A stretch of 64,000 nucleotides of DNA from a virus (lineage: Duplodnaviria; Heunggongvirae; Uroviricota; Caudoviricetes). This document shows, one piece after another, positions 5,805-35,028 of this stretch (position 1 is the first letter of the stretch; every line of letters starts with the position of its first letter). The position numbers and the translations under genes were made by a program. The DNA is taken from IMG/VR virus record IMGVR_UViG_3300034106_001169; one strand, written 5' to 3'. The notes beneath the pieces are model-generated. The model had not been told where the DNA came from, searched no databases, and saw nothing but the letters and a program-made list of their open reading frames with translations.

Positions 5805-5829
5805 TATTTAAATTTTAGATAGAACAAAG

Positions 5830-6897: not shown

Positions 6898-6907
6898 TAT
6901 TTATTAA

Positions 6908-7270: not shown

Positions 7271-7272
7271 AT

Positions 7273-9322: not shown

Positions 9323-9336
9323 AATTTCTTTTTATT

Positions 9337-9729: not shown

Positions 9730-9732
9730 AAC

Positions 9733-11334: not shown

Positions 11335-11360
11335 TTATATTTATTTTATATTTTATAATT

Positions 11361-13148: not shown

Positions 13149-13196
13149 AGTGATAATGTGTTATGTGTAATCTATTGATATACAAAGAAGTGCATC

Positions 13197-13230
13197 AAAC
13201 TTATAGAATGTGCACTAATTATAGCAAAAA
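13197..13230 (-). promoter_or_regulatory. Candidate Bacteroidota-type sigma-A promoter (-33 TTTG / -7 TAnnTTTG) upstream of fibre gene 11361..13148
   Basis: Minus-strand reading: TTTTTG, a 21-nt spacer, TAAGTTTG, then about 45 nt to the ATG. This is one of the few intergenic gaps over 100 nt (13149..13300). Confidence 0.3.
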
Positions 13231-13300
13231 TAGTGAATTTAATTTATTTTCAATGAGTTAGGAAAATTATTCCTACATAATATAGCAATAACTATACTGT

Positions 13301-16300
13301 TTATTTACCAAATGGTTTAGCTTCAGATTGTGCCTTCATACCCAGATCTTTAGCTATGTCTGGATAGAACATTAACAGAACAGCATCTACTTGTGAGGCT
13401 ATAGGGAATCCTTTTAATAAGTATTTAATCACTTGAGTTTTCTCTGCCTTCTCTTCATCTCCTACTCCCAGAGCGTACATCTCTGTACCAAAGTTTAGGA
13501 ATAGCTTCTTGAAGTTATCTAAGTAACTTATTGCTGGGAAGATACCTGATGTGGTTAGGCTTAAGAATGATGTTGGATTGTAGAAATAAGCAACCTCATC
13601 TCTAATCTTATCCATCACTCTAAGCATATACTTATATCTATTCTTTGTGGCTTTATCGTCATCATCATCATCTGGCTGTGCAACTTTAGCTCCTATGATT
13701 AATGTAGACAATGCAAGATAGAACATGAAGTCTGTCATTTGATTACGTATGTTACTACTAACCAATTCTACAAACTCACCCTCTGTCATCCTTAGTTCTT
13801 TACCTGTATCTTTCTCATAGTCAGATCTTTTTGATTCATAAAGTCTCTTTATTTGATCGACAAACTTTTGGTCATCTCCTTTTATAGAACTCATTAAGCT
13901 ATCAACAGAACCCATAAAGTCTTCTGTTAGAAGTCTGAACATGTTTCTAGTTCTACCCCACTCATAAGCTTCTGTAGCTGAGTTATATTTTAAGTTACCA
14001 AATCTTACATCTACAAGTCTTGGTATCCAGTTCTTGAACACCATGAATGACTTACCATATATATTTAAGTTAATCTTTCTAAGGTCATCCTCAGATAGAT
14101 TACCTAATGCATCTTTAGTGATAGCCTGTACCTTTCTTCTAAGTTCAATCACACTATCAGACTTTCTATCCAAACCATCCACTACAAGCTCATTACCTTC
14201 AACTCTAGCTAGTTTTAAAAAGCCTTTCTCATCAATTAATCTCTTTACTTCTGTATCAAACTTTTCTTTTAATTGACTTCTTTCTTCAGCTGTACCTGTA
14301 AACATATTAGCAAACTCTGGCTGTTTCTTAAGATATTCTCTTACATTAAACACCTTACCATCTTCTACAATAGAGTTCTCTAGATAACTAAAGAAGTTAA
14401 TAGACTGCACATATTGATCTCCAGTTCTCATCAAAATCATTAAGAAGTCTTGTATTCCTTCTTGACTAAACTTACTAACAGATAATTGCTTAGCAAGAAT
14501 GTTGTTGTAGTTTTCTGTCAAAGGTTGAAAGTATTGAAGAGCTCCAACATATTTCTTAGAGTCTATTCCATTCATCTTTTGAGCCATCATAAACTCATTA
14601 CGTACAAAGTCTGCCTTTGTGAAGAATTTACCAGCATTGATATAACTTTGGAAGCTACCTCCCAAGAAGTTTGATAATGCTGAGATAGGATTTAATCCTA
14701 ATGTCTTCATTTGGAATACAGTATTTAACTGTGTGATTGTCTTGTTCAAAGATATCTGAGCATCATCATAGTCTTCAGTAAATATCTTTCTACCTAATAC
14801 TTTGTTTGCTCTCTTACCAAAGTTTGCTATACCTCCTAATAACTGATCAAAGTTTTCACTCTCTACATACTTCTGACCATATACAATAGCTGCCATCATG
14901 TCTCTTACAAGCTTAGTGTTGTCAGAGTTGTCTGATGTAGTTTCAAGTGTACCATCAGGTCTATATTTAGTTTTACCAAAGTAGGATGTCTTTATGGCTT
15001 CTTTGTTTGACTCAACCTTAATAATCACATTTAACTGGTGCTCAATGTTACTTAAATACTCATAACGAATGGCCATGTTATTTAACAGAGTCATGTTTCT
15101 GAACAAGTCTTCACTTGCTTCTTCTACAGTTTCTCTAGTGAAATATTTAGGAATAGAATATACTGGCTCTTTAGTAATAGGATCTATCTCACCATAACCT
15201 ACGTCTCCTTCTGTGATAGTTATGTTTCTTAACAAAGACTCACCAAGTTTATACTCACCACCCATTACAATCTTCTCTGTAAGACTCTTTCTTACAAATG
15301 GTAAAAACACCCTAGCATCTCTACTATTAATATATTTGATTCCCACTAGATATTCATTTCTACCTTTAATATAATCAAAGAACTCTTTAGCAGGTTTGTT
15401 CTCTGGTTTGTTAAGTTCTTTCCATGCTTCAGACTCCCATCTCTCCGCCTTGGGAAACTTACTAACAAACTCATACAATAACCAACCAGGAGAATCAGTT
15501 GTTGATGTATTGTATAAAGCATTAACATCAGCAACCTCTCTCTTCTTCTCTTTGTTTATACTTTCTTCATCACCAAATCTAGGTTTATCTTCTATTCTCT
15601 TAAATTCTTTTTCCTTCTGTTCTTTTAAGAATTCATTATACTTTGATACATCAATGTTATCTCTAACCCATTGTGTATCTTTCTCAGCAATCTTACTCTT
15701 CAAAGTTTCGTAGAACTCAGAACTAAACTCATTTATTAATTCATTCTTGTTCTTCTTCTTGATAATATCAAAGTAGTTTTTGTTTGTAAGCCCCTTAGAC
15801 TTAGCCCACTTATCATACTTCTCTTTAATAGCTAAAAGTTTGTTTCCTTGTTCTGACGTTTCAATAGACGCAAGACCAAAGGCTCTGTTAGCCATCTTAT
15901 ATAAAATCTCAGCAGACTTAAGCTGTATTACAGACGTAGAGTTAAATAACTTACTAAATCCTTTAATAACCTTCTCAGGTTTTAATAAGTCCATAACGTT
16001 TACATCTTTTGCAATAACATTCTCAGCAAAGTCTTTTCTTACTTCTTCAAGATCTGCTTCTAACTCATTTGCACTTTCTGCAGTGTCTCTAATGTCTTGC
16101 CACAATGCTTGATCTTTCTCAGACAAGTCTTTCTTGAACAAAGACTTTAAGTCTGTTGCCAAAGATGTATAAACCATCAGAGAGGTTTCATAAGATAGGA
16201 TTCTATCAGATAGGTCATTCTTTTGTTTATCTGTAAATGCTCCTGGATCTTTACCTTTCCACTCATTATTATATGTATCTATAACTCTTTGAACGTCAGC

Positions 16301-18307
16301 ATTTAATAACTTAGCCTGTCTAATAAGGGGCTCAACATTCTCTCTCATTTGTAATTGTCTAATAGACTCATACAATGAGTTTAATAATTCAGCTTTACTT
16401 CTTTTCTCTTCAGGACTAGCTTTCTTAGAAGATATAGTGTCATATATCTTATTAAGCTTTTCAATCAACGTATCTAGTTTCTTATTACTAGTCTTTTCAG
16501 TTTCTAAACCTACAGGTAGTAAGTATGCTAGTTCTTCTTTGTTTAAGTTTACATCTCCTATCTGAACACCTGTCAACTGTGGTAGCACTCCTTCTTTAGG
16601 AATAGCTCCAGAATAAATTGCTCTGATAGGAATCATTCTTGTTTGTTCAAAGTCTTCTGGCTTAACACCATACCCCTTTTCTATAATAGACTTGTATTGT
16701 TTCATTTGTTGTCTCCAAGCACTTACCTTATACCAAGGAACATCTTTATATCTTTGAACATTAAGGTCCATAAACTTCCAGTCTAAAATGCTTACCTTTC
16801 CTTCAGGAGTAACAGCAATAAAGTCTATAGTACCAGCTACATCACGTGATGCATTATATACAGTCATCTCAGCAAGAAACTTTGTATTAGCAGGGAATGT
16901 TTCCAAACGAGCTGCCATGTTTCTTTTAAGAATATTATACATATCCTTGTTCTTAGGATTCAACTGAGATATATATCCATTATCATCAGGTCTTTCATTC
17001 TCAGGTCTCAACGTACCATCTTCATTTAAGAAGTAGTTCTTAAGCATGTGCTCAATGTCAGCATGTCCTGCTGTACCTTTTTCTTTCTTAAGGTCATCTA
17101 CAGCTTGATCATACTCAGACTTAGTCAAGTCTTTGTTAGCAAATCTTGTGCTATACCAATCTTTAACAAAGTCAGTAACTCTTCTTTTGATTCTGTTACC
17201 ATTAATTAAATAACCAGTGTCATCTTTTGTAATCTGATTACTAGTTAATTTTAACTTATCAATTATAAGTTGTTGAGTGTTAACGTTTTGTTGGAAGAAT
17301 ATTCCTTCTTTGTTTCTAATATCATCAGCAGTGCCAATCTCTTCACCAGATAAAACCATCATTGCTGCTTGGTCAAATCCAGATTTAACAAATAATCCTT
17401 TTATAAAGTCAACTATTGTATTCCACCAACCTTCTACCTTAGCTAATAGCTCAGGCTTCTCTGTAGAACCTTCATTCTTTCTAATGATTGTCTCAGCTAA
17501 TATTTTACCAATAGCCTCCACCTTTAACTTTCTGATGTTAGGTTTGCCATCAGCAGTTTGATATTGTTTGTACTTACCATATGTAGCTAGGACATCAGAA
17601 TACATTTTGTATCCATTGATTTCTCCTAGTAATCTATTAAATAACTGAGGATTCTTTTGCTCTAATATTTCTACAACAAAGTGCATAGCTTCTTCTGTAA
17701 GGGCTACATTCTCTTTACCCTCTACTACTTGTACAAGCTTTTGCATAATGTTAGCAACACCATTTACATCTTGCTTAACACCATCCACTTCTATAGCTTG
17801 TAGTGTTTTAATATCTACACCTATTCTATTTAACAAATCTTTAACAAGACTTACAGTTTGAGGAGCTGCTTTAGAAGCAGGTATCTCTCCTGTTTGTAAT
17901 AACACTGTGCTATCTCCATCAGAGTTAACACCAAATGTAGTATCATTCTCAAGATCTAATCTGTTAGCCTCAGGTATTTCAAGATCTAATTCAGCCAAAG
18001 CTTGTTCAAGCTCAGTTGCATCTTTTGCATTTAATGCATCCAACTGCTTAACTGTAGGAGCAATAATTACTCCCACCTTATCTGAATATTGTTTAGGATA
18101 GAATACCTTTCCTAAAGCAATTTCAGAATTGATTGCTTTGTTAAGAGTGTCTGCTACAGAACGAGATACTCCATAGAAGTTGTTAGAATTAACTTTCTCC
18201 TTAGGAGATGTTCTAACTTCTATAAAATCCTTACCATCAAATCTTAAGTAAGGCTTGTTCTGTACATATTTCTCAACTGCAGTTTTTATACCTGTTTGAC
18301 AACTCAT
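13301..18307 (-). CDS. Large virion-associated protein (1668 aa), function unknown; possibly an ejected cargo/internal protein
   Basis: Long uninterrupted ORF directly downstream of the 3655-aa ORF, with a 1-nt stop/start overlap. It has a D6 acidic tract (PDDDDDDKATKN). No catalytic motif recognised. Confidence 0.55.
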   Translation of the reverse strand: MSCQTGIKTAVEKYVQNKPYLRFDGKDFIEVRTSPKEKVNSNNFYGVSRSVADTLNKAINSEIALGKVFYPKQYSDKVGVIIAPTVKQLDALNAKDATELEQALAELDLEIPEANRLDLENDTTFGVNSDGDSTVLLQTGEIPASKAAPQTVSLVKDLLNRIGVDIKTLQAIEVDGVKQDVNGVANIMQKLVQVVEGKENVALTEEAMHFVVEILEQKNPQLFNRLLGEINGYKMYSDVLATYGKYKQYQTADGKPNIRKLKVEAIGKILAETIIRKNEGSTEKPELLAKVEGWWNTIVDFIKGLFVKSGFDQAAMMVLSGEEIGTADDIRNKEGIFFQQNVNTQQLIIDKLKLTSNQITKDDTGYLINGNRIKRRVTDFVKDWYSTRFANKDLTKSEYDQAVDDLKKEKGTAGHADIEHMLKNYFLNEDGTLRPENERPDDNGYISQLNPKNKDMYNILKRNMAARLETFPANTKFLAEMTVYNASRDVAGTIDFIAVTPEGKVSILDWKFMDLNVQRYKDVPWYKVSAWRQQMKQYKSIIEKGYGVKPEDFEQTRMIPIRAIYSGAIPKEGVLPQLTGVQIGDVNLNKEELAYLLPVGLETEKTSNKKLDTLIEKLNKIYDTISSKKASPEEKRSKAELLNSLYESIRQLQMRENVEPLIRQAKLLNADVQRVIDTYNNEWKGKDPGAFTDKQKNDLSDRILSYETSLMVYTSLATDLKSLFKKDLSEKDQALWQDIRDTAESANELEADLEEVRKDFAENVIAKDVNVMDLLKPEKVIKGFSKLFNSTSVIQLKSAEILYKMANRAFGLASIETSEQGNKLLAIKEKYDKWAKSKGLTNKNYFDIIKKKNKNELINEFSSEFYETLKSKIAEKDTQWVRDNIDVSKYNEFLKEQKEKEFKRIEDKPRFGDEESINKEKKREVADVNALYNTSTTDSPGWLLYEFVSKFPKAERWESEAWKELNKPENKPAKEFFDYIKGRNEYLVGIKYINSRDARVFLPFVRKSLTEKIVMGGEYKLGESLLRNITITEGDVGYGEIDPITKEPVYSIPKYFTRETVEEASEDLFRNMTLLNNMAIRYEYLSNIEHQLNVIIKVESNKEAIKTSYFGKTKYRPDGTLETTSDNSDNTKLVRDMMAAIVYGQKYVESENFDQLLGGIANFGKRANKVLGRKIFTEDYDDAQISLNKTITQLNTVFQMKTLGLNPISALSNFLGGSFQSYINAGKFFTKADFVRNEFMMAQKMNGIDSKKYVGALQYFQPLTENYNNILAKQLSVSKFSQEGIQDFLMILMRTGDQYVQSINFFSYLENSIVEDGKVFNVREYLKKQPEFANMFTGTAEERSQLKEKFDTEVKRLIDEKGFLKLARVEGNELVVDGLDRKSDSVIELRRKVQAITKDALGNLSEDDLRKINLNIYGKSFMVFKNWIPRLVDVRFGNLKYNSATEAYEWGRTRNMFRLLTEDFMGSVDSLMSSIKGDDQKFVDQIKRLYESKRSDYEKDTGKELRMTEGEFVELVSSNIRNQMTDFMFYLALSTLIIGAKVAQPDDDDDDKATKNRYKYMLRVMDKIRDEVAYFYNPTSFLSLTTSGIFPAISYLDNFKKLFLNFGTEMYALGVGDEEKAEKTQVIKYLLKGFPIASQVDAVLLMFYPDIAKDLGMKAQSEAKPFGK

Positions 18308-21300
18308 TAGAATTTACATTTAAAGTCTTTAGTACTTAGATCTGTTTCTGTTTCAGGCTGTGAATTTACTTCATTTTCAACAATACCTGTAAAGTATTTT
18401 ATAATCTCTGAATTAGGAATCTCATCAGTCACCTTACCTGTGTTATTATCTAACTCAGAAGGTTTATTAAACTTATAGTATTCAGAAATAAATTGTCCAT
18501 CACCATATAAGTTTACCATCTTGAATACAAACTTTCCTTTATATGTTCTCAATGCTTCACCACTTATAAACTTAACTTTCTGATAACCAAACATTTGTCC
18601 AATTATAGGATCACCCTTAGCTTTTAATTCTGCATATCCTGCTCTTGTAATAGTCTTACCAGTCATGAAGTCAATCATCTCACCATACTTAGTGGTGATG
18701 ATACGTGGAATTGTAATCATATCATAGCCAGCAGCTTTAGATCTTTCACCTACAGATAGTACAAGTTTATCATTCTCACCTATACCAACCTCTGGGATTT
18801 CTACAAAGCCTGTAAACTTGTATTGAGAAACTATTTCATTCTTAAACTCACCAAGTTCTGTTATAGACTCTTCATCAATATAAGGGGCAATAGCAGGAGT
18901 GATATCTGGATTCTTCCAATTGTTTCTTTGGAACCAATTGTTATTAGCAAACTCTTGAACGTTTGTATCTACCACAGCTGTGTTTACAATATCTTTTACT
19001 TCTGTAGAATAGTCTTCAATAGGAACAATGTTCTTAATAGATACAGCAGATTGATAGGTACCTTGTATGATAGCTACTTTGATAAGATCTTTGAATAGTT
19101 GGTTAGTATTTGGATTGTCTCTCAACTCTCTCATCATACCAATATACATGTTCTCATCATAAGCTTCTTTAGTATTAGCTTTAAGCTTAATAGTCTTAGG
19201 GCTGTTTGGTCTTTCTGCAGACACTACAACTAAGTCTTGTAGTATTTGTACATTAGGATATTTTTGTTTATCTTCTTCTAACTTCACTGCTACAGATCCT
19301 GGACCAAAAGATAACTCACTGATATTCAATGCGTTCTTTCTACCTGTTTGAATAATATAATCAAGTAAGCTTGCTGTTGCTTTCTCAGCCACTCTATTAA
19401 ATGTATCCTTAGCCATGTAAAACTTCTCAGCATATTGTTGAATAGTATTCTCAAGCACCCCTCTGAATTCAGGTTGGTTAAACTTAAGGATGGCACCTAG
19501 TGCTGAATTAGATTGATCTAACACAGTCTTTTCTGTACCTAAGAAAGAACTGTCTAACACTTTCTGTGGAGAGCTAATAGCTCCTTTATTTTGTGCACGA
19601 TCAGTCATCATTTCTTTTCTGTAGAAGTCATCAGCATTTCTAAATGTACTGGTATCATAATTGATAGCCTGTGTGAAATTGAAGTTCTCATCAGCTAGGG
19701 TAACATAAGATAAGAATTCATTCAATATCTTGTGTTGTTCAGCATTCTGAGTTTCATTCATTGTATCCTTAGCGTAAGAGGATATGTTATCCTCAAAGTT
19801 ACCTTCAGCAACTGTAGCTGCTTGGATAGCTTTGGTACTTGCAGGGAAGTTTATCTTAGCCTGTTTGATATAATCAGCATTGCTTATTGCATATCTAGGA
19901 GCACCATTAGCATCTAAGTTCTTGATGTGTTCTCTTATAATAGGCTGGTTCATAAACATAGCCACTGTCTTCATAGGAACACCTGCACGCTCTAATAACA
20001 TAAATGTGCCCACAACTCTATTGCTGTAGATAATCTTCATGATGTATGGGTCTTTAGCAATATCTACGAAAGCATTCGCATACATTGATAACTTATCAGA
20101 GATGTATTTTTTATCCTGGTCTAACATACCAGAAAGAGATATATGCTCAAATCCACCATCTTTAAACTTGTTGTGTGATAAAGCCATTTCTGTTTGTGGA
20201 TTCTCAACAAACACATCTGTCTTTTGTGCAAGAGAATTACCTGTAATGTTTACAGCAGCAATACCAATCCATCTCTTACCAGTCAAGAAGGCATGTCTTT
20301 GATTAGTCATGTAGTTTCTATCCAACAATCTATTCTTGATATCACCTTCATCCTCTCCTCTTAATGTATCTAAATTACCAGCAATCTCTTTAAGAGTTGT
20401 ATCTGTATTAGGAGAAGTCAATCTATCAAAGTTATCTGGTAGAGTTAGTAATGTTTCAATAGATCTAAAGTATTCATTCTCAAGAGATTGTTTGTATAGC
20501 TTATCAGCTAATGTACCATAGTCATCAATTCTACTTCCAGATATCTCACTATTGATATCTAACATTGCTTTGATATCTTCCTCAAAGATGAATTTCTTGA
20601 TAGCCTCTTTAGCTTGATCTCCATATCCAAAGAATGGTACAGACTTGATTTCTCCAGAAGGAGTTACGTATATGTTCTTTAAGTATAGATTTAATTTATC
20701 TATGTCAAAGTCAGATCCAGCCTTTGTAGTGATTTCAGAAGGAACTACAATTGTCTTACCCATAAACTCAGGTAAGAAACCTTTGATTCTAAATACCTCT
20801 GCAGAGTTTAATCCCTGTGTTGGAATACGAAATCCTATACCTTTTAATATCTCTGAATCTTTCAATAACTCAATTAGTTCTTCATCAGTCTTTCCAACAA
20901 CACCTGCCTTAACTAATTGATTCTTAAACCATGCAGGAAGATATACCTCCATATATGGATCTTCTCTTGTATAAAACTTAAGAGCAGACTTCTTTAATCC
21001 TTCTCCTCTAGACTCACCAGCTTTCTCCCACATTGTTACAGGAACCTGTACAGCAGGGAAACCATTTACCTTAGGAGATACAATAGACTTGTCTACAATT
21101 GAATACAAGATGCTCTTGATCTGGATGTAGTTTGTTGATGCTTCGAATGGAATATAAAACTCTCCAATTTCTGGATCAATAGATATACTATCAATACCAT
21201 TCTCAGACATTTTTCTCTTAAGCATCTCCTGTCTTAATGTATCAGCTACAACAGTCTTATCTTTAACAACAAAGTTGTCACCTAGATCTTCAATACTAAG

Positions 21301-24300
21301 CTTTCTTAATAACTCTTGATATCCATTAAGTAACATCTCTTTCAACACCTCAGTGTTCTTTTCTACTGCCTTTCTAGCATCTTCATTATTAGCTTTACCA
21401 TCACTGTATAAGTCAACAGTGGCAAGCTTAGTTAACTGAGAACCAAGGGTTTGTTTGCTATCTTTATCATAGCTATTCTCTACTTGAATACCATAAGCAT
21501 CCCAGCCAACATTGATTGTATTGTTAAATGCTTCTTCATTAAAGTTACCATCTTCATTATATAATTTGTGTAACTTCTCAGCTCCCACTTTTCTACCAGA
21601 AACTACTACAGCATAGTCATAACCTTCTTTGAACATTTTCTTATAGAACTTAGCAAGATTGGTTCCTTTTACAGCTTTATAATATAAAGGCATTTGAGAG
21701 AACTTATCTAATACAAGGTCAAAGTTTGCTTTACCAAACTTATTACCAGATACAATAGGTTTTAATTCCTCTATAAAATTCTTAGGCTCAGATTGTTCTA
21801 TTAACGCTTCATCATGTTTACGAAGAGCTTCGCTTCTATATTTGTAGCCAGGAACATTCTGTCTTGTGTAAGCCATTTGCCATTGATGCCAATCTTCAGC
21901 CTCATCAGACCATTGACCATTCTTTAATTTCACTTCTTTAAATGCACCATCCATAATCCAAGAAGCAGCATCTGCTTCATTTGTCTTAGGATAAAAACTA
22001 TCTGTCACTTCTACATCAGCAGCTGTGAATGTCTTAGCAAAGTTTTTATGCTCATGATATCCATAGTCTTCTGATGTTAATTGAACACCAGCCACTGTAT
22101 TGTATTCACTATTGAATAAGTTATTAAACTCATCAGAGTTTACAGTGATTCTTCTTGGAGATAAGAAAGACTTAATACGCTTAGTCTCATCTAATTGATT
22201 GCCTTCAATCTTAAACTGATATGGATCACCAAACAATATCTTGTGGAACTCCACGTTGTTAATCATGTAGTTAGCATTAGCAAACTTGATAACATTATTA
22301 ACATCTTGATCTGCCAAAGCTAACTTATTCAAGCCAGCCTTTTCAGTGAATCTATTCTCTAGCTCAGGCATTATATATTTATCTGCTGCAAATTGAACTG
22401 AAACAGTTAAACTAAAAATAAGTTTATTTGTATCAATTAAGTTTTGTCTAGTCTTGGTAACAGTATCATTTAATGACTTTAGAATACCTGCATCTAAATC
22501 TTCACGATTTGTATTAATAAAAGTATTAATACTTTCTTCTGATGCTCTATTGTCAATAAGCTTTTGTATCTTCTTTAACAAGTTAGCAGGAAGCATATCC
22601 TTTAAGAATCTAAGCTCTGTAGCTTTATCTTCTACGTTTCTAAGCTTAGATCTGTTAGTGCTATCTTGAGCTAACTTAATCTCATCCTTTAAATATCCTA
22701 AGAATGTATCAGTGAATAACTTATCTGCATTACCAGCAGCTACGTCTGTATAGGCAATTGTATTACCTAAGTTCATCATCCACTCTCTAGAACTATCTGC
22801 AGGGATTAATACATAATATCTACCATCTAGGTTTTGGTTCATTTCTGTAATGTACCTATCACCTATGCTTAGAGAAGATGTTGTCTTTCCTTCATTGTCT
22901 ACAACATCCTTAACTCCCTGTATGTATTGTAACTTAATCTCAGCAATTCTATTACCTTCTTCATCAAAGAAGTTACCACCTAGTTTTAACACTTGGCTGT
23001 TTGTAGAGAATACATCATTTAACTGAGGCATGTTCTGCTTCAATTCTTCTAACGTGTCAGAAGAGTTAAATACGTATTCTAATAAAGAAGGATAGTTTGC
23101 ATCTGTGTCAGATTGTATTCTATTACCATCTACACCAAAGTATGTGCTGTCTTCTGCAGGAGAAGCAGCCACTGTATATAACTTAGCCAGCTCATTTAAC
23201 TGTGTACGAATACCAAGCTTTCTACCACCAAAGCTCATCAACTCATCTGTCTTACTAAGACCTATCTTAATACCAGTTACAGCATCACCAAAAGCTTTCT
23301 TGTTCTTCACCTTATTGTACACAGCCATTGGAAACTCTATACCTAACTGTGCTAAGAACTCTATCTTATCTTGTGGAAGCTTAATATTATAATCCTCTTT
23401 CTTAACTTTATATACTTTTCCATTAAAGCTAATGACAGAACCAGGCTGTTCAGCCTTAGTCTTCATGTTCTCTATCCACTCAGATCTTGTTGCAGCAATA
23501 GCAGAAGCTTGATTAGCAGGAGCAGTGTATACATTATTACCATCCATGAACATAGCTAACGCATCAGGTCTTTGTTTTGTAAACACCTGATAGAAGTTAG
23601 TAAACAATCTAATGTCATGAGGTTTGTAAGAATTAAAGTCAATCTTACCAGTGGTTAGGTTACCACCTAAACGTTCAAACAATCTAATATAGTCACTGTT
23701 TTCTTTAGCTAATTCATGTAGCTTAGATACAAACTCAGGGATACTTCTTGTGTTAGAAAGTCTATTCATTAAAGTTGTAAACGCTTGATTAAAAGGTAAC
23801 AGCTTAAGTCCACCAATACTAGATGTATCAGCTTCACGACTCAAACCTTTTGTCTTAATCAAAGTACCAATCAATAATTTAACAGCATATGGAGAAGACT
23901 TCTTGAAATTAACAGTGAACGCTTCAGCAGCATAGTCTTTTCTATTAGCTCCATCATCATTAACTGTAACTCTACTATCTTCATCAAACTCAATTCTGTA
24001 TGTTTTCAAGAACTCTTTAGTTCTTTCAACTAACTTAGCGTATTGATTCTCAGAGATTTGTGTTACAGGGTTGTCACCAATAACATTGTTCTGTATATAT
24101 TTTTCTCTGATTCTATTAAATAAATCAAAAGATGTAATGTCTTCTATATTAAACAAAGAGCTGTTGTTGGCAAATATCTCACCAAACACTCTAGCTGTAA
24201 TGTCTTGTACAAACTCATTAGTTTGCTTAGCATTTATACCTTCAATCTTTCTATACTCAGCAGCTTGATTCTTAACAGTTTCAGGAAGTGTTCTATCTGC

Positions 24301-27300
24301 AAACTCACCTGTATTTATAGCTTTGAATAAGTCTTCTTTCAATGTAGGTTTATTTACAAATGATTTGAAGAAATCCATAATAGCTTTGAAGAAGTTCTTA
24401 ATCTTTTCTGTAAGGTTTCTAGCAGGTAACTTACCAAGTCTAAACTCAGCAAAGTCATCAGCTATTCTTTCCTTAGCTTGTTGATCTGTAGCATCTGCAT
24501 AATCTATTCTTCTACCAGACTCTCTGTCTAAGAAAGAACCTGTTTGAGCTTTGAACTCATCAAGGATAGATTGTTGCTCTCCTTGAGATAAGAAACCTTT
24601 CCAGATACCTTCAAATATCTCATGGTATTCTGTACCTCTCTGAGCTCCTTTAAAAAACTTAGCCACACCATTCTCAAATGCTCCCCATGCCTTCTCTGTG
24701 TTATTAATAGTAATAACATTCTCTAACACTTGATAAGGAATGTTCTTAGCATTCTTAGCATGCCATTCTTTAAACAATGCAAGCTCAGCATCACTTATTC
24801 TATCTACATCTGTTCTACCTATTCTTCTGTATTCAGCATCACCAATGTTGATGTTCTTAGGTTGTTCTGCTTGTTCAGCTTTCTCTTCAACAGGAGCTAC
24901 TTCTACTCTATCTTTAACAAGCTTAGCTGTAATGAACTCAACAGCAAACTTAGCAGCAGTCTCAATAGGTTGGTCTAACTCATCATACTTACCTAGGTCT
25001 TTAAGTTGTTGTGTAGCAACAGCCATTAATTGTGGGTTGTCTACAATCTTCTGAATGTTTGGATTCTCACCAACTAACTCTACAGTGAAGTCACCTTTAC
25101 TATCTGTTGTAACCTTATATGTAACATCACCTACATTAGACTTATATGTCTCCACTCCAGTTTCTGCAGGTTTAACTACAGATTGTTTAGGAAGTTCTAA
25201 GCCATTTAGAATGATATACTTTTGTTTGTGTGTGTAAGGAACAGCCTCTGTAGGTTTAGCCACAGTGGTTGTTAAAGGAGCTATACGTCCAGATCCATCA
25301 GGATTCTTACTTGCTAACAAATAAGATTGATAGTTCTTCCAGTTTCTTTGTGCTAACTTACCAGCAGCATCTACATAGAATTCTATAAAAGGTTCACCTA
25401 GTCCTAAGTTAACTGTGAAGCTATTTACATTATGGAACACTCCTTGTAAATCACTTACAATAGGAATCTCTTGTTTCTCTATATTAGCAAAGTCATATGT
25501 GTTGCTTCCAATGTGCAATATAGATCCCTCTATATAAATACGATTGCCACTTCCTTCGCCTACACCATTTGCTACAGCATCTGCATTGGTATAGAATGTA
25601 ACTCCTTGTAAAAATCTTTTATATATCTCATTAAACTTAACTGGCTTCTTAGCAGCAATTTGTTGCTTAGCTTCATTAGACATAGCTTTGAGTACATTAT
25701 AAACTGCACTTGCTTGGTCTTTAGTTAAGTTAGAATTGTTTAAATATTCTAATGTGTCTTGGTTTTGGAATACAGGTCTGCCATTAGGAAATTTATAAGT
25801 TATACCATCTATATGGTCAATACCTTCTTTAGTCACAACAGTTAAGACTTGTTGTGTAGCAATCTGATTCTCAGGAATAAGAACACCACCTACAGACTTT
25901 TTAACATCATCTGTATTAGCAATACCTCTAGATGGAGTAAAGTTAAATATTGGATACTCTTCTTCAGCAGCCTCTCTTAAGTCTTTACGATATACTTCGT
26001 ATGCAGCTAACTCTAATGCAGCTTGTTCTTCTTGACCAGCTCTGTTTCTAGGTTCACCTTTACTATTGTCTAGTTTAGCAGCAGGCATACCTGTAAACAC
26101 CACCTTGTTTAATTCCACTTGCTCACCCACCTTACCAATAGGATTGCCATTCTTATCTACAAATTGTCTTTCTCCTTTCTTGTCTTCTACAAATACAAGA
26201 CCAATGAAACCATAAATAGGATCATTCAATAAAGCTGTATCAAAGTTACCTTCTCTAAAAGATAGTTCACCAAGACCAGCTAATCCCAATGCAGCTTCTT
26301 GTTTCTGAGTGACAACAATAGCTTTGATATTCTTCTTATTCTTAAAGGTCTTTACCTTGTTTATAAACTCATTGTAACGTGTAATGTTAGGAGCTAATGT
26401 TTTCTCCCAGTCAACAGAGGCAGACGTAGAAGAGGTAAACAATATACCTGCATCTTTCTTAGGAGTCTCCTTAGGACTAGGTGTATTCATTAAGTCTTCA
26501 TCATTGTTGCCTGTTGGGACAACTCCAGATGTAGCAGCAATATCAGTTTGTGCAGACTTAATCTTATCTGCTACAGCATTCATCTTCTCTCTATTAGCTT
26601 GAAGATCAGCTTGTTCTTTCAAATATGTTTCTGAAAGTGTATTGAACTCAGTCTCAACAGCATCAATTAATTGTGCATTGTCTAAAGAGTTAATATACGC
26701 TAACTTATCCTCTCCCTCAGGAAGTGTAACACCTGCAAACTCAGGAGTGGATAATACATTATCAATAGCAGCATCCATGATGTCTTTCAACTCTGGTGAC
26801 TCTGCACCTTCATCAGCTAAGTCTATTGTTGCAAAATCTTCAGGAGTTAAGAAACGCACATCACCTCTAGGTAACTGCACTTCATATTCACCACCCAATG
26901 TTTGAGATAACACCTTAATCTTAGGAGCTAATGTAAGTGTATTGTCTTGCTTTCTAACAGGTTGTTTTAAGAAGTACTCTTTACCAACCTCTAGTTTTCT
27001 TTCTGTTTGTATAGGAAAGAACTGTCCTTCTGATGTTACGTCTTCTTCTTCTTCTATCACTGTTACAGGCACTTCTCCTGCAGCACCAAACTCTACATCA
27101 GGCTTAAACTGAAAGTCTGTAGGTTTAGATTTGATAGCATCATATTCATCAATGAATAACTTTCTACGTAAACCCAATTCAATGATGTCAGACAATGCTG
27201 TCTTCAAGTCATCCTTAGTCTCAGAAGTTACATCCATCTCATTGATTTGTTTCAATGATTCTTGTACAGCTTCTTTATTAGGTTTGTTTTCTTTGATGAT

Positions 27301-29274
27301 ACTTTGTAATATGTCTTGTGTATTAACCCCTGCTGTGAACAACATGTTATTTACCTCAGGAATACGCAAGTCATAACTACCCACCTTAGCTAAAGAATAC
27401 ACCATTTTATCTAATATCTCTGATGTATAGCCAGGTTGATTACTATACTTTCTACCTAAAGAATCATATAAGTCATTTATGTTCTTTGTGATTCTTGCAA
27501 TGTTTGTAAGTCTCTTTAAGAAGTCTTCTCTAGTTTCACCAGCATTTACAATACCATTTGCAACCAATTGTTGGAAGCCTTCTTCTGTAGCTGATTGTTG
27601 AGAATAATAAGATAACTCTTCTCCAATAGAATCCACCTTACCATATTTAACTCTTGGCATAATGTAAGATAATGTAAAGTCTGTCTCAAAGTCTTTCTCT
27701 GAAACCTTATCATTATTTACAATAGATTGTTGTCTAGCCTTTTGAGAACCAATACCAATACCAATATATCTAGCATAGTCTCCAAGTACATTTTCAATAT
27801 TGCTTTGTTTCAAAGCACCTAGAGCTATATCTGTATTAGCTCTTCTTTGACCACCTGTACCTAATATACCTTGTTGTTGAATTGTATTTCTAATTTGTTG
27901 AATACCACCAGACAAGCCACCAATTAAGATGCTCTCTAAACCTTCTTTAGTAGAGATGGCATCATCTACACCCTTACCAAGTACGTTACCCATAGTACCA
28001 CTTAGAGCAGTCAAGAAGTCTTGTGTACCTTGTCTGTTTCTAAAAGCTCTATTGAAATAATCATTTGTACCTACTTGGATGGCAAACTGTGCACCTTCTT
28101 CAAATGCTTCTGTAGGAGCAAAGAATAGTTTAGAAACATCCTTTGATCTTTGTAACACTTTTCCAAACTTAGTAGAGGGAACCACTTCTGTAAAAGCAGC
28201 ACCTTGTCCTTTCTTTTCAATCTGATTAAGTAACAACTTATCAGCTCTGTTAGAAGAACCTAATATCTTTGGAAGTTGAATATAGTTTGTACCAGTTAAT
28301 AATAAAGTATTCATTCCCCAAGTGAAGTTACCAACGCTACTTACGTAGTCATCAAGTTCTTCTAGGTCAGCACCTGTAGGATTCTTACCATATTTTTGAA
28401 CATATTGTTCTATTGCCTTTTGTCTGAAATCATTTGCATTCTGTAAAGCCTCTAATGAAGCTTCACCAAATGTACCCATTGTAGAAGCAACAATTCTTTC
28501 AGGATCATTTAATAACTTACCTATAGGAGTCTTTAAATATTTCTGTGCTACAGAATTAAGAGCACCATCAAATGCAGCAAATTGATTTACTTTAGGAACA
28601 GCTTGCATTGCTCCCTCTGCAGCAGTAACAGCTTCTAATCCATATCCAGCTCTAACCAATGCATTTGTTGTACCTAGTGTTTTTAATAGTTTAGCCCAAG
28701 CTACACCACCACCTAATGCACCCACTGTATAACCTAAGTTCTTCATCAGTTTATCTGAGAAGAAGTTAGCAGTCCATATATTATCAGGAGACCACCAATC
28801 AGCATCTCTTTCTTTTGTTGTATAATAGTTAGGAGCAGTATCTTCCAATCCTTGAATAAATGTCTTATCCATGTTTCTAGTCAAATCATTATTATAAAGA
28901 CTAGAAAACTTTCCATCTTTTATAGCAGATCCAACACCATAAACAAGACCAGCTGTACCAGAAACAAGAGAAGCAGTTGCAGTGCCAAAAAACTTAATAG
29001 CACCATTCTTCCATCTATCTGCTGAAGATTGTTGTTGAGCATATGCTTCCTCAAGATTCTCACCAGGTCTAACAGCAGCATATCTTTCACCAACGTATAG
29101 GTTAGCTGTAGGAATAGCTTCCACACCTGTTGGTTTAGCAGTGCTTAATCCTTGTGTATACAAGTCAGTTATAGAAGGAGCAGGACCTTTAGATTGTCTA
29201 ATGTCTGTATTAACTACAGGTGTCTTTGGAAAACCTTCAATTGTACCCCCTAAATTTACTATTTTATCTGGCAT
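18307..29274 (-). CDS. Giant virion protein (3655 aa) containing a double-psi beta-barrel RNA-polymerase catalytic domain (crAss-like virion RNAP candidate)
   Basis: Translation of 20698..20835 (minus) gives FRIPTQGLNSAEVFRIKGFLPEFMGKTIVVPSEITTKAGSDFDIDKL. This parallels the beta-prime stretch NRAPTLHRLGIQAFEP…AYNADFDGDQMAV (RxPT… then DFDGD), with G replaced by I as in crAss-like phage vRNAPs. The position, after the tail genes in the late block, matches crAss-like genome layout. Confidence 0.65.
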   Translation of the reverse strand: MPDKIVNLGGTIEGFPKTPVVNTDIRQSKGPAPSITDLYTQGLSTAKPTGVEAIPTANLYVGERYAAVRPGENLEEAYAQQQSSADRWKNGAIKFFGTATASLVSGTAGLVYGVGSAIKDGKFSSLYNNDLTRNMDKTFIQGLEDTAPNYYTTKERDADWWSPDNIWTANFFSDKLMKNLGYTVGALGGGVAWAKLLKTLGTTNALVRAGYGLEAVTAAEGAMQAVPKVNQFAAFDGALNSVAQKYLKTPIGKLLNDPERIVASTMGTFGEASLEALQNANDFRQKAIEQYVQKYGKNPTGADLEELDDYVSSVGNFTWGMNTLLLTGTNYIQLPKILGSSNRADKLLLNQIEKKGQGAAFTEVVPSTKFGKVLQRSKDVSKLFFAPTEAFEEGAQFAIQVGTNDYFNRAFRNRQGTQDFLTALSGTMGNVLGKGVDDAISTKEGLESILIGGLSGGIQQIRNTIQQQGILGTGGQRRANTDIALGALKQSNIENVLGDYARYIGIGIGSQKARQQSIVNNDKVSEKDFETDFTLSYIMPRVKYGKVDSIGEELSYYSQQSATEEGFQQLVANGIVNAGETREDFLKRLTNIARITKNINDLYDSLGRKYSNQPGYTSEILDKMVYSLAKVGSYDLRIPEVNNMLFTAGVNTQDILQSIIKENKPNKEAVQESLKQINEMDVTSETKDDLKTALSDIIELGLRRKLFIDEYDAIKSKPTDFQFKPDVEFGAAGEVPVTVIEEEEDVTSEGQFFPIQTERKLEVGKEYFLKQPVRKQDNTLTLAPKIKVLSQTLGGEYEVQLPRGDVRFLTPEDFATIDLADEGAESPELKDIMDAAIDNVLSTPEFAGVTLPEGEDKLAYINSLDNAQLIDAVETEFNTLSETYLKEQADLQANREKMNAVADKIKSAQTDIAATSGVVPTGNNDEDLMNTPSPKETPKKDAGILFTSSTSASVDWEKTLAPNITRYNEFINKVKTFKNKKNIKAIVVTQKQEAALGLAGLGELSFREGNFDTALLNDPIYGFIGLVFVEDKKGERQFVDKNGNPIGKVGEQVELNKVVFTGMPAAKLDNSKGEPRNRAGQEEQAALELAAYEVYRKDLREAAEEEYPIFNFTPSRGIANTDDVKKSVGGVLIPENQIATQQVLTVVTKEGIDHIDGITYKFPNGRPVFQNQDTLEYLNNSNLTKDQASAVYNVLKAMSNEAKQQIAAKKPVKFNEIYKRFLQGVTFYTNADAVANGVGEGSGNRIYIEGSILHIGSNTYDFANIEKQEIPIVSDLQGVFHNVNSFTVNLGLGEPFIEFYVDAAGKLAQRNWKNYQSYLLASKNPDGSGRIAPLTTTVAKPTEAVPYTHKQKYIILNGLELPKQSVVKPAETGVETYKSNVGDVTYKVTTDSKGDFTVELVGENPNIQKIVDNPQLMAVATQQLKDLGKYDELDQPIETAAKFAVEFITAKLVKDRVEVAPVEEKAEQAEQPKNINIGDAEYRRIGRTDVDRISDAELALFKEWHAKNAKNIPYQVLENVITINNTEKAWGAFENGVAKFFKGAQRGTEYHEIFEGIWKGFLSQGEQQSILDEFKAQTGSFLDRESGRRIDYADATDQQAKERIADDFAEFRLGKLPARNLTEKIKNFFKAIMDFFKSFVNKPTLKEDLFKAINTGEFADRTLPETVKNQAAEYRKIEGINAKQTNEFVQDITARVFGEIFANNSSLFNIEDITSFDLFNRIREKYIQNNVIGDNPVTQISENQYAKLVERTKEFLKTYRIEFDEDSRVTVNDDGANRKDYAAEAFTVNFKKSSPYAVKLLIGTLIKTKGLSREADTSSIGGLKLLPFNQAFTTLMNRLSNTRSIPEFVSKLHELAKENSDYIRLFERLGGNLTTGKIDFNSYKPHDIRLFTNFYQVFTKQRPDALAMFMDGNNVYTAPANQASAIAATRSEWIENMKTKAEQPGSVISFNGKVYKVKKEDYNIKLPQDKIEFLAQLGIEFPMAVYNKVKNKKAFGDAVTGIKIGLSKTDELMSFGGRKLGIRTQLNELAKLYTVAASPAEDSTYFGVDGNRIQSDTDANYPSLLEYVFNSSDTLEELKQNMPQLNDVFSTNSQVLKLGGNFFDEEGNRIAEIKLQYIQGVKDVVDNEGKTTSSLSIGDRYITEMNQNLDGRYYVLIPADSSREWMMNLGNTIAYTDVAAGNADKLFTDTFLGYLKDEIKLAQDSTNRSKLRNVEDKATELRFLKDMLPANLLKKIQKLIDNRASEESINTFINTNREDLDAGILKSLNDTVTKTRQNLIDTNKLIFSLTVSVQFAADKYIMPELENRFTEKAGLNKLALADQDVNNVIKFANANYMINNVEFHKILFGDPYQFKIEGNQLDETKRIKSFLSPRRITVNSDEFNNLFNSEYNTVAGVQLTSEDYGYHEHKNFAKTFTAADVEVTDSFYPKTNEADAASWIMDGAFKEVKLKNGQWSDEAEDWHQWQMAYTRQNVPGYKYRSEALRKHDEALIEQSEPKNFIEELKPIVSGNKFGKANFDLVLDKFSQMPLYYKAVKGTNLAKFYKKMFKEGYDYAVVVSGRKVGAEKLHKLYNEDGNFNEEAFNNTINVGWDAYGIQVENSYDKDSKQTLGSQLTKLATVDLYSDGKANNEDARKAVEKNTEVLKEMLLNGYQELLRKLSIEDLGDNFVVKDKTVVADTLRQEMLKRKMSENGIDSISIDPEIGEFYIPFEASTNYIQIKSILYSIVDKSIVSPKVNGFPAVQVPVTMWEKAGESRGEGLKKSALKFYTREDPYMEVYLPAWFKNQLVKAGVVGKTDEELIELLKDSEILKGIGFRIPTQGLNSAEVFRIKGFLPEFMGKTIVVPSEITTKAGSDFDIDKLNLYLKNIYVTPSGEIKSVPFFGYGDQAKEAIKKFIFEEDIKAMLDINSEISGSRIDDYGTLADKLYKQSLENEYFRSIETLLTLPDNFDRLTSPNTDTTLKEIAGNLDTLRGEDEGDIKNRLLDRNYMTNQRHAFLTGKRWIGIAAVNITGNSLAQKTDVFVENPQTEMALSHNKFKDGGFEHISLSGMLDQDKKYISDKLSMYANAFVDIAKDPYIMKIIYSNRVVGTFMLLERAGVPMKTVAMFMNQPIIREHIKNLDANGAPRYAISNADYIKQAKINFPASTKAIQAATVAEGNFEDNISSYAKDTMNETQNAEQHKILNEFLSYVTLADENFNFTQAINYDTSTFRNADDFYRKEMMTDRAQNKGAISSPQKVLDSSFLGTEKTVLDQSNSALGAILKFNQPEFRGVLENTIQQYAEKFYMAKDTFNRVAEKATASLLDYIIQTGRKNALNISELSFGPGSVAVKLEEDKQKYPNVQILQDLVVVSAERPNSPKTIKLKANTKEAYDENMYIGMMRELRDNPNTNQLFKDLIKVAIIQGTYQSAVSIKNIVPIEDYSTEVKDIVNTAVVDTNVQEFANNNWFQRNNWKNPDITPAIAPYIDEESITELGEFKNEIVSQYKFTGFVEIPEVGIGENDKLVLSVGERSKAAGYDMITIPRIITTKYGEMIDFMTGKTITRAGYAELKAKGDPIIGQMFGYQKVKFISGEALRTYKGKFVFKMVNLYGDGQFISEYYKFNKPSELDNNTGKVTDEIPNSEIIKYFTGIVENEVNSQPETETDLSTKDFKCKF

Positions 29275-32060
29275 TATTGTTCAGTTAAAAGTGCTTCAAT
29301 CCACTGTGCGTTTACGTTATTTGTTAAGTTCTGAAGAACTGCTTGTAAGTTTGGACTACCAGGCATTGTCATTACCTTTGATCTTCTACCATCACTTCCA
29401 AATATGTTTGAATAATATAAACCATTTTTATATACAATATTAGCTGCAGCATCATATCCACTTCCTTTCAAGTTAATAAAGTCAGGTGTCTTAAGATAAC
29501 TATCTCCTTGTATGTATGTTGATTTTTCCTTAGGGTCACCTTTAGAAGTTTGGTCACCATTTGCATTTAAATAAGTTCTAACATTGGTAACTTCTTTTGG
29601 TTCGTATAATGTAGAAGGATTAACACCAAGTCCTCTAGCTTCATCATCTGCTATAATCATACCTCCTAATCTCTTATTATCATCTCCACCATATGCTACA
29701 ACTTCAACTAAAGGTTTACTTCCAGGACCTGTAATAACTTGTGCTTCAAAAGTAACATCTTTTTTACCAACATTAGAAGCAAAGCTTTTAAAGTCAGGAG
29801 AAATATTCTTTCCTGAAGTATTATAATTACCAGCAAATCTTGTTAATTTATCTACCATCACCTTATCATCTCCAGCATCTCCACTTAATAATCCAGCTTT
29901 TAAGTTTGGTTGAACATTATAAAATCCTTTTACAACATTTGCTTTTGTCTTTAATATATCAGCATAGTCATCTCCTAACTTATCATATATCTTATTTACT
30001 TGAGACAAGTCTATTCCTGGGAATGCACCTCTTCCTGGAAGAGGGATACCTTTACCAATTGAATTGATTGCAAGGTTTCCTATAGCTTTAGCAGATCTTA
30101 TAGTATTTGTTATTGGACCAGCATCTTCTCCATATTGTAATAGTGCAAGATCAAGTAATTCTTTTTTACCTTTTGCATCCATTCTAGCCTCAGCCTTTCT
30201 AGCTTGATCTCTTGCTCCTTTATCATTTAAAAAACCAACAGAAGATGCATTACCTTTTAAGTATAGTGCTATATCATAAAAATCATCTGGAGTTAATACA
30301 ACTGCTTTACCATCAACTAATCCTCCAACAGACTTTATACCTTCTGTTATCTTTGCTTTGTTTACATCTTTACCTAATATATTTCCTGTCACTTCATCTA
30401 CCTTTCTTTTGACAGTATTTAACATATCAAAGTTTCTTTTTGAAGCACTGTATAAATAATAAGCATCTTGAACATCAGGGTTGTTTCTTTTTTCTTGAGC
30501 AGTCATAGTGTTCATAGCTACTGTAGATTTATCACCCCATCTAGCTCTAAAGTTTTCTGGAGTTTCTTTATTCTGAGCTGCTGTACTATCAAGTAAGTTT
30601 TTAATAGCTTGATCTCTACTAGTACCTTGTGCCATCATTCTATCAAGCTTAGCTTGATTTCCAGGAACTTTAGAAATAGCAGCACTCCAAATAAAGTTAT
30701 CTGCAGAATTAGTATAGTTATCTGCAGCACTTGCATAATCTGATTCAAAATTAGAAATTAAATCAACATTACCTGGCATATCAGCTTGTTCAAAACCACT
30801 ACCTGCTCCAAAATCATCAGGTATACCATCACCATTAGTATCAATACCTTTACCTTTAGTTCCTTTCATTTGTGCAAGAACTAATTGTAATTGTCTATCT
30901 TTTGCTTTTTCTCCTAAATTAATTTCAATCTCCTTAATTTTCAAAGCTCTATCTTGAGCCCATCTAGATTGTTCATTAGCTTCTTGTAAAAGTTTGAAGT
31001 TAGCATCCCAACCTGGGTTGCTCATTGATGTTTCTTTAGTTTTCATCTCACCAAACATTGTGGTGAATCTACTTTTAACATCATCCTTATATAACAAAGA
31101 TCTGATAGCATCTGGATTATCCTGAGTTACAGACATTATATCATCATACTGACTTCTTATATTATTCTTCTTTAATTCAAGTTGATCTATCTGAGCTTGG
31201 ACATCCTTACCTGTACCTTTTTTTAAAGCAAGTTCATTTATCTCCTCATCATACTTAGCAATCATATTTTCCTTTTGAGCGTTAACCTTTTGAGCTAACA
31301 TATCTGGAGAATAGTTTTTGTATTCATATTCACCTGAGATACCTAATTGCTGACTCACTCTACTATCAGAAAAGATTTGTTCTATAGTTTGTTTTACCTT
31401 CTCTGGAAATCTACCTTCCTGCTCTAGTCTTTTCATCACTGGAGAATAAATAGGCTTGCCTGATTTATCAACTTTTATATTACCATTTCCATCTGTTTCA
31501 TAAACCATATCTGTTGTAAAACCATCAGGCTTTACAGAATCAAATGTTTCTTTAGCAAACTTCTGTACATCAAAATAAGGGATATAACCTGCTGAAAACT
31601 TTTGACCAGCTTTATCAGAAGACAACCAACTGTTAGCTTTCTTATTAAAGAAATCAACATTAGCTGGACTTGACTTACCTTCATCTACATCCTTCTGTAA
31701 CTTAGAAAGTTCTTTTCTATAATTGGCTGTAGAGTATACAGCATTCTGAACTGTAGGGTCTTTGATAACTTGGGTAGCCATACCTCCCACAGAGTTAACT
31801 AATTGCTGATTAGAGAAGTCTCCTGCTGCAACAGTCTTTAATCTACTACCCAAGTCATTTAGCTTGGACTGTAGATACTTTTTGTCAGCATCATTGACAA
31901 CGTCCATACCAGCAATATTATCTACATATCCCTGGATTTTTTGCACACCTTGGTCATACTGTTGTTGCTTTTGAGTGCCAACAGTGACCATTGCTTCTAT
32001 CAAAGGGGCCTTTGATACGTATGGGTTAAAGGTTGATATTTGATCTGTAAACGATGCCAT
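29274..32060 (-). CDS. Large virion protein (928 aa), function unknown
   Basis: Long ORF, 1-nt overlap with the downstream giant ORF, coiled-coil-like segments. No motif recognised. Confidence 0.5.
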   Translation of the reverse strand: MASFTDQISTFNPYVSKAPLIEAMVTVGTQKQQQYDQGVQKIQGYVDNIAGMDVVNDADKKYLQSKLNDLGSRLKTVAAGDFSNQQLVNSVGGMATQVIKDPTVQNAVYSTANYRKELSKLQKDVDEGKSSPANVDFFNKKANSWLSSDKAGQKFSAGYIPYFDVQKFAKETFDSVKPDGFTTDMVYETDGNGNIKVDKSGKPIYSPVMKRLEQEGRFPEKVKQTIEQIFSDSRVSQQLGISGEYEYKNYSPDMLAQKVNAQKENMIAKYDEEINELALKKGTGKDVQAQIDQLELKKNNIRSQYDDIMSVTQDNPDAIRSLLYKDDVKSRFTTMFGEMKTKETSMSNPGWDANFKLLQEANEQSRWAQDRALKIKEIEINLGEKAKDRQLQLVLAQMKGTKGKGIDTNGDGIPDDFGAGSGFEQADMPGNVDLISNFESDYASAADNYTNSADNFIWSAAISKVPGNQAKLDRMMAQGTSRDQAIKNLLDSTAAQNKETPENFRARWGDKSTVAMNTMTAQEKRNNPDVQDAYYLYSASKRNFDMLNTVKRKVDEVTGNILGKDVNKAKITEGIKSVGGLVDGKAVVLTPDDFYDIALYLKGNASSVGFLNDKGARDQARKAEARMDAKGKKELLDLALLQYGEDAGPITNTIRSAKAIGNLAINSIGKGIPLPGRGAFPGIDLSQVNKIYDKLGDDYADILKTKANVVKGFYNVQPNLKAGLLSGDAGDDKVMVDKLTRFAGNYNTSGKNISPDFKSFASNVGKKDVTFEAQVITGPGSKPLVEVVAYGGDDNKRLGGMIIADDEARGLGVNPSTLYEPKEVTNVRTYLNANGDQTSKGDPKEKSTYIQGDSYLKTPDFINLKGSGYDAAANIVYKNGLYYSNIFGSDGRRSKVMTMPGSPNLQAVLQNLTNNVNAQWIEALLTEQ

Positions 32061-32136
32061 AATACAAAATTAATTTAAAATATTAGAATTACCAAGAGTA
32101 ATAACATTTTTTGGTAAATCACTATAACTTAATTAG

Positions 32137-35010: not shown

Positions 35011-35028
35011 ATTGAACGTTTGTATGAT

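Follow-up and report, generated by a model that had tools for sequence, protein, structure and literature searches.

A giant open reading frame of a Crassvirales phage very likely encodes a virion RNA polymerase fused to a cargo protein

The virion RNA polymerase (RNAP) gp66 of the crAss-like phage phi14:2 (PDB ID, 6VR4; Drobysheva et al.) is a stand-alone protein of 2180 residues with a separate cargo protein, gp67 (1797 residues), encoded ahead of it; its catalytic motif is 1361-DFDID-1365, every Asp of which is required for its Mg2+-dependent synthesis of RNA; crAss-like RNAPs typically have Ile or Val at the fourth position. In crAss001, the corresponding virion cargo proteins, Gp47 and Gp50, have been described as 'RNAP-associated' (Bayfield et al. 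2023). Fused forms are also on record, as three cargo proteins are joined into one huge polyprotein in some phages (Drobysheva et al.), and a 2023 review puts the largest crAss RNAP genes at ~6000 residues. Here, we describe an open reading frame (ORF) of 3655 residues at 18307..29274, on the minus strand of a 64,000-nucleotide stretch of Caudoviricetes DNA (IMG/VR record IMGVR_UViG_3300034106_001169; hereafter the window). An earlier note had read this ORF as a crAss-like virion RNAP with DFDID (Ile in place of Gly) fused into a giant protein, and this reading is borne out by homology to gp66, predicted fold, motif conservation and the crassvirus context, which together identify a crAss-like two-barrel RNAP. 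It is very likely that the ORF encodes a single-chain, two-barrel, virion-packaged DNA-dependent RNAP of a Crassvirales phage, orthologous to gp66 and fused to a cargo protein.

The ORF is real and begins with ATG, and the following parts were assigned to its polymerase core.

18307..29274, minus strand: whole ORF, 3655 residues from an ATG start, cargo module fused to a virion RNAP
21544..21777, minus strand: first double-psi beta-barrel (DPBB) region, residues ~2500-2577, from the phmmer alignment to gp66, just before the gp66 Connector, with beta strands in the model
21094..21543, minus strand: Connector between the barrels, residues ~2578-2727, aligned with gp66 1095-1238; conserved TxGSQxTK
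20635..21093, minus strand: second DPBB, residues ~2728-2880, with RIPTQG…GSDFDIDK, from alignment and model
20698..20712, minus strand: catalytic Asp triad DFDID, residues 2855-2859, same as gp66 1361-1365
20221..20379, minus strand: bridge-helix region, residues ~2966-3018, aligned with gp66 1529-1559; 33-residue helix in the model, residues 2986-3018
20032..20151, minus strand: trigger-loop region, residues ~3042-3081, aligned with gp66 1598-1636; conserved NAFVDxAKDPY
18310..20031, minus strand: C-terminal region of the RNAP module, residues 3082-3655, longer by up to ~670 residues near the C-terminal end in orthologs

The stretch FRIPTQG…SDFDIDKL spans residues 2815-2861, and RIPTQG…SDFDID residues 2816-2859, corresponding to 20698..20829 of the window; the earlier note had the lower bound right and set the upper one (20835) two codons too far. 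No DxDxD other than DFDID occurs in the protein. At this length, a bare DxDxD falls within chance expectation (0.96 occurrences; at least one in 57% of shuffles), and DFD[IVG]D arose in ~1% of shuffles. Since the bare motif is uninformative in so long a protein, the polymerase assignment must rest on homology to gp66 and on conservation. In a phmmer search of all PDB chains, 6VR4 was the sole match (E-value, 2.4e-25), with collinear stretches pairing residues 2318-2871 with gp66 863-1391 and residues 2929-3116 with gp66 1488-1671. The octapeptide GSDFDIDK is identical in the two proteins (GFRIPTQG…KAGSDFDIDKL in the window and GYRIPNQG…KTGSDFDIDKM in gp66), overall identity being ~21–25%. The core also found tblastn matches at ~22–33% identity in 137–145 phage records, those among the matches listed being crAss-like or uncultured faecal/metagenomic phage records. 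Scans of the whole ORF with Pfam, PHROGs and NCBIfam gave nothing above noise, and the gene had no megablast match in the phage collection, which has no near-identical genome; the closest IMG/VR contigs are 87–97% identical and at most 116 kb long.

The predicted structure of residues 2300-3200 (pLDDT 79.9; pTM 0.80) contains a double-psi barrel around DFDID, and shows two such barrels in one chain with a connector between them, in an overall gp66-like fold. The second barrel with conserved Lys/Arg residues that the earlier note had proposed to look for lies upstream of the connector: within DPBB1, whose boundaries are approximate, SGRKVGAE (residues 2559-2566) has near-invariant S, R, K, and G, and Lys2562 aligns with the Lys of DGVKVGA in gp66. 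Of 34 database homologs aligned to residues 2300-3200, 32 cover the catalytic site, and every one of these retains the Asp triad (DFDID in 31 and DFDFD in one). The DFDxD motif is likewise present in all 13 orthologous loci of IMG/VR, and DFD[IVLFM]D in 131 of 146 representative proteins; the latter are the best 146 of the 1042 representative clusters (50% identity) that an exhaustive HMMER search with residues 1481-1720, a block described below, returned at E ≤ 1e-3. Both checks named in the earlier note, a double-psi barrel around DFDID and conservation of the Asp triad in orthologs, thus came out in favour of its reading. The virion RNAP of gut and marine crassviruses is thereby confirmed in environmental ones, the nearest characterised phages being only ~25% identical to the window protein.

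Also considered was the possibility that the polymerase module has degenerated into a structural or ejection protein, keeping the barrel fold but not catalysis. The self-inhibited state in which gp66 crystallised, with its motif in a non-canonical conformation, could be taken in this sense. Against it, the Asp triad, RIPxQ, the Lys of SGRKVG, and NAFVDxAKDPY are near-invariant in the relatives checked, the triad persists across hundreds of diverged relatives, an identical motif is essential for activity in gp66, and the core has the lowest dN/dS in the protein (~0.10). The near-invariance of these elements and the low dN/dS make a non-catalytic module very improbable, and an active polymerase core is the preferred assignment.

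More distant polymerases share only parts of this design. The RNAP of Thermus phage P23-45 (gp96), a siphovirus, is fused to an unrelated tail tape measure protein with the RNAP at the N-terminal side, and its barrels are distantly related. Coliphage N4 vRNAP (~3500 residues) is a functional analogue in that it is giant, encapsidated, ejected, flanked by packaging/ejection regions, and transcribes early genes, but its fold is that of an unrelated T7-like single-subunit RNAP. Neurospora QDE-1 and the eukaryotic RDR polymerases are RNAi enzymes with no virion role and have no detectable sequence similarity to the window protein.

Several points weigh against the polymerase assignment as a whole. 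Rifampicin-resistant, Mg2+-dependent, DNA-templated RNA synthesis has been shown only for gp66, and any packaging, ejection, cleavage or activity of the 3655-residue protein is putative. DPBB1, bridge helix and trigger loop are placed by an alignment at ~21–25% identity and a predicted model, and residues 1481-2318 have no significant similarity to gp66, matching only cr108_1, crAss001 Gp47 and metagenomic homologs. In addition, it is from its composition and family membership that the helical, Gly-rich N-terminal module is given a probable role in ejection or in crossing the envelope, and not in catalysis.

Ahead of the core, the earlier note had left over 2800 residues unassigned as a possible seat of additional activities. 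Most of this region can now be placed.

24907..29274, minus strand: N-terminal cargo module, residues 1-~1456, homologous to phi14:2 gp67 and to the N-terminal region of crAss001 Gp47
24835..24906, minus strand: variable linker, residues ~1457-1480 (VEVAPVEEKAEQAEQPKNINIGDA), the fusion junction, from the ortholog alignment
24115..24834, minus strand: conserved HExx[H/E] domain, residues 1481-1720 (…EKAWGAFENGVAKF…RGTEYHEIFEGIW…), with H1551, E1552, E1555 and E1573
21778..24114, minus strand: middle of the RNAP module, residues 1721-2499, in a position equivalent to the pre-DPBB domains of gp66

Residues 1-~1456 belong to the gp67/Gp47 family, and residues 1481-2855 (~1375 residues) make up a normal N-terminal part of an RNAP, comparable to the 1361 residues ahead of DFDID in gp66. 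As for additional activities, the conserved HExx[H/E] domain is the only candidate, its function being unproven, and the remainder is assigned to modules. Residues 1721-2499 have no assignable domain but are collinear with cr108_1 gp054 and with the stand-alone RNAP genes of two unfused relatives (L019 and L020).

BLASTP of the N-terminal module matched cr111_1 gp032 (E-value, 1e-20), crAss001 Gp47 (7e-19, residues 94-718), and phi14:2 gp67 (6e-4), and mass spectrometry has detected gp67 and Gp47 in virions. Homologs of the cr111_1 gp032/Gp47 type are separate 'putative RNA-polymerase subunit' or structural proteins in other crassviruses, and a stand-alone form of 1.5–2.2 thousand residues occurs in many metagenomic relatives. 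The AF2 model of the module (pLDDT 70; pTM 0.38) has long α-helices over residues 74-720, followed by small β and α/β domains, with predicted Gly/Ala-rich, weakly hydrophobic helices near residues 95-120 and 175-200. A Foldseek search of this model against BFVD retrieved structural proteins of phi14:2, phi4:1, and cr108_1 (E-values, 1e-11 to 1e-14; phi14:2 at 1.8e-11), and one against the PDB gave no fold match, only spurious helical bundles (ABC transporters) with a TM-score of ~0.06. Homologs of the module were also found by tblastn, BLASTP, and phmmer among structural proteins of the Cellulophaga phages phi4:1 and phi17:2 (e.g., NC_021788, 33013..33822); these 145-kb phages gave no match to the RNAP part, and the cargo module may, from these matches, circulate beyond RNAP-carrying crassviruses.

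The linker is where orthologs differ most. Insertions of 89–444 residues occur at this site, and together with extensions at the C-terminal end account for all large differences in ortholog length (3655–5004 residues); the dN/dS of the linker is relaxed (0.24–0.81). In two long contigs with unfused relatives, 3–7 small genes lie between the gene for the N-terminal module and the giant, separate RNAP gene that comes after it. Because the RNAP genes of the unfused relatives start with the HExx[H/E] domain, and because the distance from HE to DFDxD is tightly conserved, the junction is placed before this domain; a junction after it, as in crAss001 Gp47, was rejected for this lineage. The longest orthologs (L009 and L016 of IMG/VR, 1367..16384; 5004 residues) carry the 444-residue insertion at the linker and ~670 extra residues near the C-terminus. 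In one unfused relative (L020, a JGI 3300050207 contig), the stand-alone RNAP gene (19734..25427) has a Pfam NADAR match, apparently before the HExxE domain, and an upstream cargo-block gene of 1353 residues (3201..7262) has an SLT lytic transglycosylase domain.

A continuous giant ORF might arise from an assembly error, in which a lost stop codon or a frameshift joins two real genes. One relative (L011) is indeed split by a frameshift into 2512 and 1653 residues, and fragments are numerous among the database entries. However, 13 independent IMG/VR contigs (loci L004–L018; 46–97% identity) contain the same frame uninterrupted and intact, most of the best 146 representatives are of 3.5–5.65 thousand residues, and the modules flanking the junction are under purifying selection, which extends along the whole length of the gene (dN/dS, 0.15–0.25 overall and 0.08–0.38 per module). 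The many independent intact orthologs effectively refute an artefact. The split gene (IMG/VR, 2416..14878) has a 38-nucleotide overlap or frameshift inside the RNAP module, whereas the genes of the close relatives L010, L012, and L018 are unbroken; the split could reflect a sequencing error, a pseudogene, or programmed frameshifting.

Nor is the size exceptional, as the earlier note had supposed in calling the protein far larger than described crAss-like RNAPs. Apart from the published lengths and polyproteins cited above, the best 146 metagenomic representatives have a median length of 4220 residues and a maximum of 5650, and the window protein lies at the small end of its IMG/VR orthologs. 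The same fused architecture, collinear with residues 1276 to 3118, is present in cr108_1 (Pipoluvirus rarus, RefSeq NC_055878), in which it is annotated as two 'hypothetical proteins' (gp054 and gp053; 2967 and 798 residues) that meet exactly inside the catalytic motif. The ~290-nucleotide gap in this gene corresponds to a full-length group I intron (Rfam RF00028; 80 bits; E-value, 1e-20; 14492..14810 of locus L001) lying within the codons of the motif, and the fused protein after splicing has ~3765 residues. The window gene differs in being free of the intron and in having HExxE in place of the canonical HESFH. Searches with sub-regions gave mostly fragments and stand-alone modules, as if the fusion were rare, a picture that the exhaustive HMMER search corrected. 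The fused giant form of cargo protein and RNAP is thus common and already documented in the literature, and the ORF does not overturn current understanding; it provides a clean, intron-free, single-ORF case with its module boundaries mapped. Its added value is modest, and lies in the mapping of the hypervariable junction and of a conserved HExx[H/E] N-terminal domain found in a very large clade (>1000 clusters) and, at the sequence level, not in gp66.

This domain (…AWGAFENGVAKF…RGTEYHEIFEGIW…) is the best-conserved block outside the catalytic core in the ortholog alignment. His1551 and Glu1552 are invariant across the 146 aligned homolog stretches; at the fifth position of the motif, 125 of these have Glu and 21 have His. 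The motif of the window is HEIFE, and hence not the canonical HExxH, which is seen as HESFH in cr108_1 (hhalign probability to the region, 98%) and as HEAFH in crAss001 Gp47. A near-invariant Glu (Glu1573) follows 18 residues beyond the motif, a spacing that is gluzincin-like. The distance from HExx[H/E] to DFDxD has a median of 1376 residues and is 1304 in the window protein, close to the 1361 residues that precede DFDID in gp66, and stand-alone RNAPs of 2.4–2.7 thousand residues start with the domain. In crAss001, the HEAFH domain that ends Gp47 matches residues 1514-1684, and the DFDVD core of Gp50, encoded on the opposite strand, matches residues 2584-3115, whereas in the window all parts are collinear in one chain. 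By its place in these alignments, the domain is the N-terminal domain of the polymerase in this clade and the C-terminal end of Gp47 in crAss001.

On its motif, the domain is possibly zincin-like. It is conceivable, albeit unlikely, that the 3655-residue protein is a polyprotein precursor, in which the domain would act as a metallopeptidase of zincin type, the second His ligand being exchanged for Glu in most of its members, and would cut in cis at or near the linker, freeing the cargo module during maturation or after ejection. The invariant His and Glu, the restriction of the fifth position to His or Glu, both of which are metal ligands, and the spacing to Glu1573 are consistent with such a peptidase. 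So is its constant location at a module boundary, namely N-terminal in stand-alone RNAPs, C-terminal in Gp47, and directly after the linker in fused forms. Drobysheva et al. have proposed that fused polyproteins are cleaved and that this gene block contains a zincin domain. On the other side, HExxE is not a canonical zincin signature, and the domain has no sequence match in Pfam, NCBIfam, PHROG or the PDB, profile searches of PDB sequences and Pfam giving coiled-coil noise only. By hhalign, it has no similarity to the N-terminus of gp66, nor to the zincin region of phi14:2 gp65, and the idea that it is that zincin in a new location was dropped. More doubtful is a further proposal, that HExx[H/E] marks a new metal-dependent autoprocessing domain, a Glu-ligand derivative of the zincins, that would release the polymerase from the cargo or ejection module or clear away an N-terminal plug that inhibits it. 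If true, it would answer how crAss virion RNAPs become active after ejection, a question left by the gp66 structure. The domain is a concrete target for studies of the maturation and activation of crAss polymerases.

The present analysis covers homology, fold, motif conservation, module boundaries, purifying selection, and genomic context; phi14:2 and crAss001 serve as the models for how the fused virion RNAP may work. In this lineage, the RNAP is translated jointly with the upstream cargo protein (gp67/Gp47 family) as one polypeptide, running from the cargo module (residues 1-~1456) and linker (~1457-1480) through the HExx[H/E] N-terminal domain, ~800 residues of lineage-specific domains, DPBB1, Connector, DPBB2 with DFDID, bridge helix, and trigger loop to the C-terminal region. 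After late synthesis it would be packed into the cargo zone of the capsid, from which, ahead of or with the DNA, it would be extruded through the tail at least partly unfolded. Upon refolding in the cytoplasm, it would carry out rifampicin-resistant transcription of the early genes, with Mg2+ held by Asp2855, Asp2857, and Asp2859. Homologs found in virions by mass spectrometry give indirect support for the packaging step, as does the Cys depletion of the gene block.

The composition of the encoded proteins bears on the extrusion step. Five consecutive ORFs on the minus strand (13301..36315; 1668, 3655, 928, 957, and 428 residues) contain only two Cys in 7636 residues, and His is scarce too. 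Many other ORFs of the window, above all the muzzle and tail-side ones, have 1–3% Cys (37 in the 1892 residues of the muzzle protein). Cys is depleted in the same way in the cargo proteins of phi14:2, cr108_1, cr111_1, and crAss001. The near-total absence of Cys fits extrusion through the tail in an at least partly unfolded state, and Cys depletion, a feature read from composition, could be a simple predictor of ejected proteins.

The gene lies in the cargo or 'transcription' block of Crassvirales, and the window also contains capsid, portal, and muzzle genes.

13301..18307, minus strand: downstream ORF of 1668 residues, third giant cargo protein, cr108_1 gp052-like, with a weak match to crAss001 Gp49
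29274..36315, minus strand: three upstream ORFs of 928, 957, and 428 residues, without Cys, grouped by position and Cys depletion
37192..42870, minus strand: crassvirus muzzle protein (Pfam crAss_MUZ; E-value, 1.8e-32)
56332..57885: crassvirus major capsid protein (Crass_capsid), by family match
59857..62439: P22-like portal, by family match

The minus-strand order is muzzle, ORFs of 288, 428, 957, 928, 3655, and 1668 residues, and then collagen-like fibre genes. The succession of muzzle, small ORFs and giant ORFs parallels that of phi14:2 (g070…g067–g066–g065), cr111_1, and crAss001. On either side, the giant ORF meets its neighbour in a TAATG overlap of stop and start codons (18305..18309 and 29272..29276), suggesting that the 928-, 3655-, and 1668-residue ORFs are translationally coupled. 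HExxH is absent from the 1668-residue neighbour, which also lacks a significant match to phi14:2 gp65. The 928-, 957-, and 428-residue ORFs, which gave no family matches in the family-library scans, are probable further cargo or ejection proteins.

Elsewhere in the window, six ORFs on the minus strand (5830..13148 and 49495..51114) carry collagen triple-helix repeats, and four of the six end in Peptidase_S74 intramolecular-chaperone domains; they probably represent multiple alternative tail fibres. The region 114..4714 encodes glycosyltransferases (GT1/GT4 and GT9), a DUF6445 protein, two 2OG-Fe(II) oxygenases, and a sulfotransferase, all of which except the sulfotransferase are oriented opposite to the structural genes. 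Judging from these families, the products of this block may modify the host surface or the glycans of the virion.

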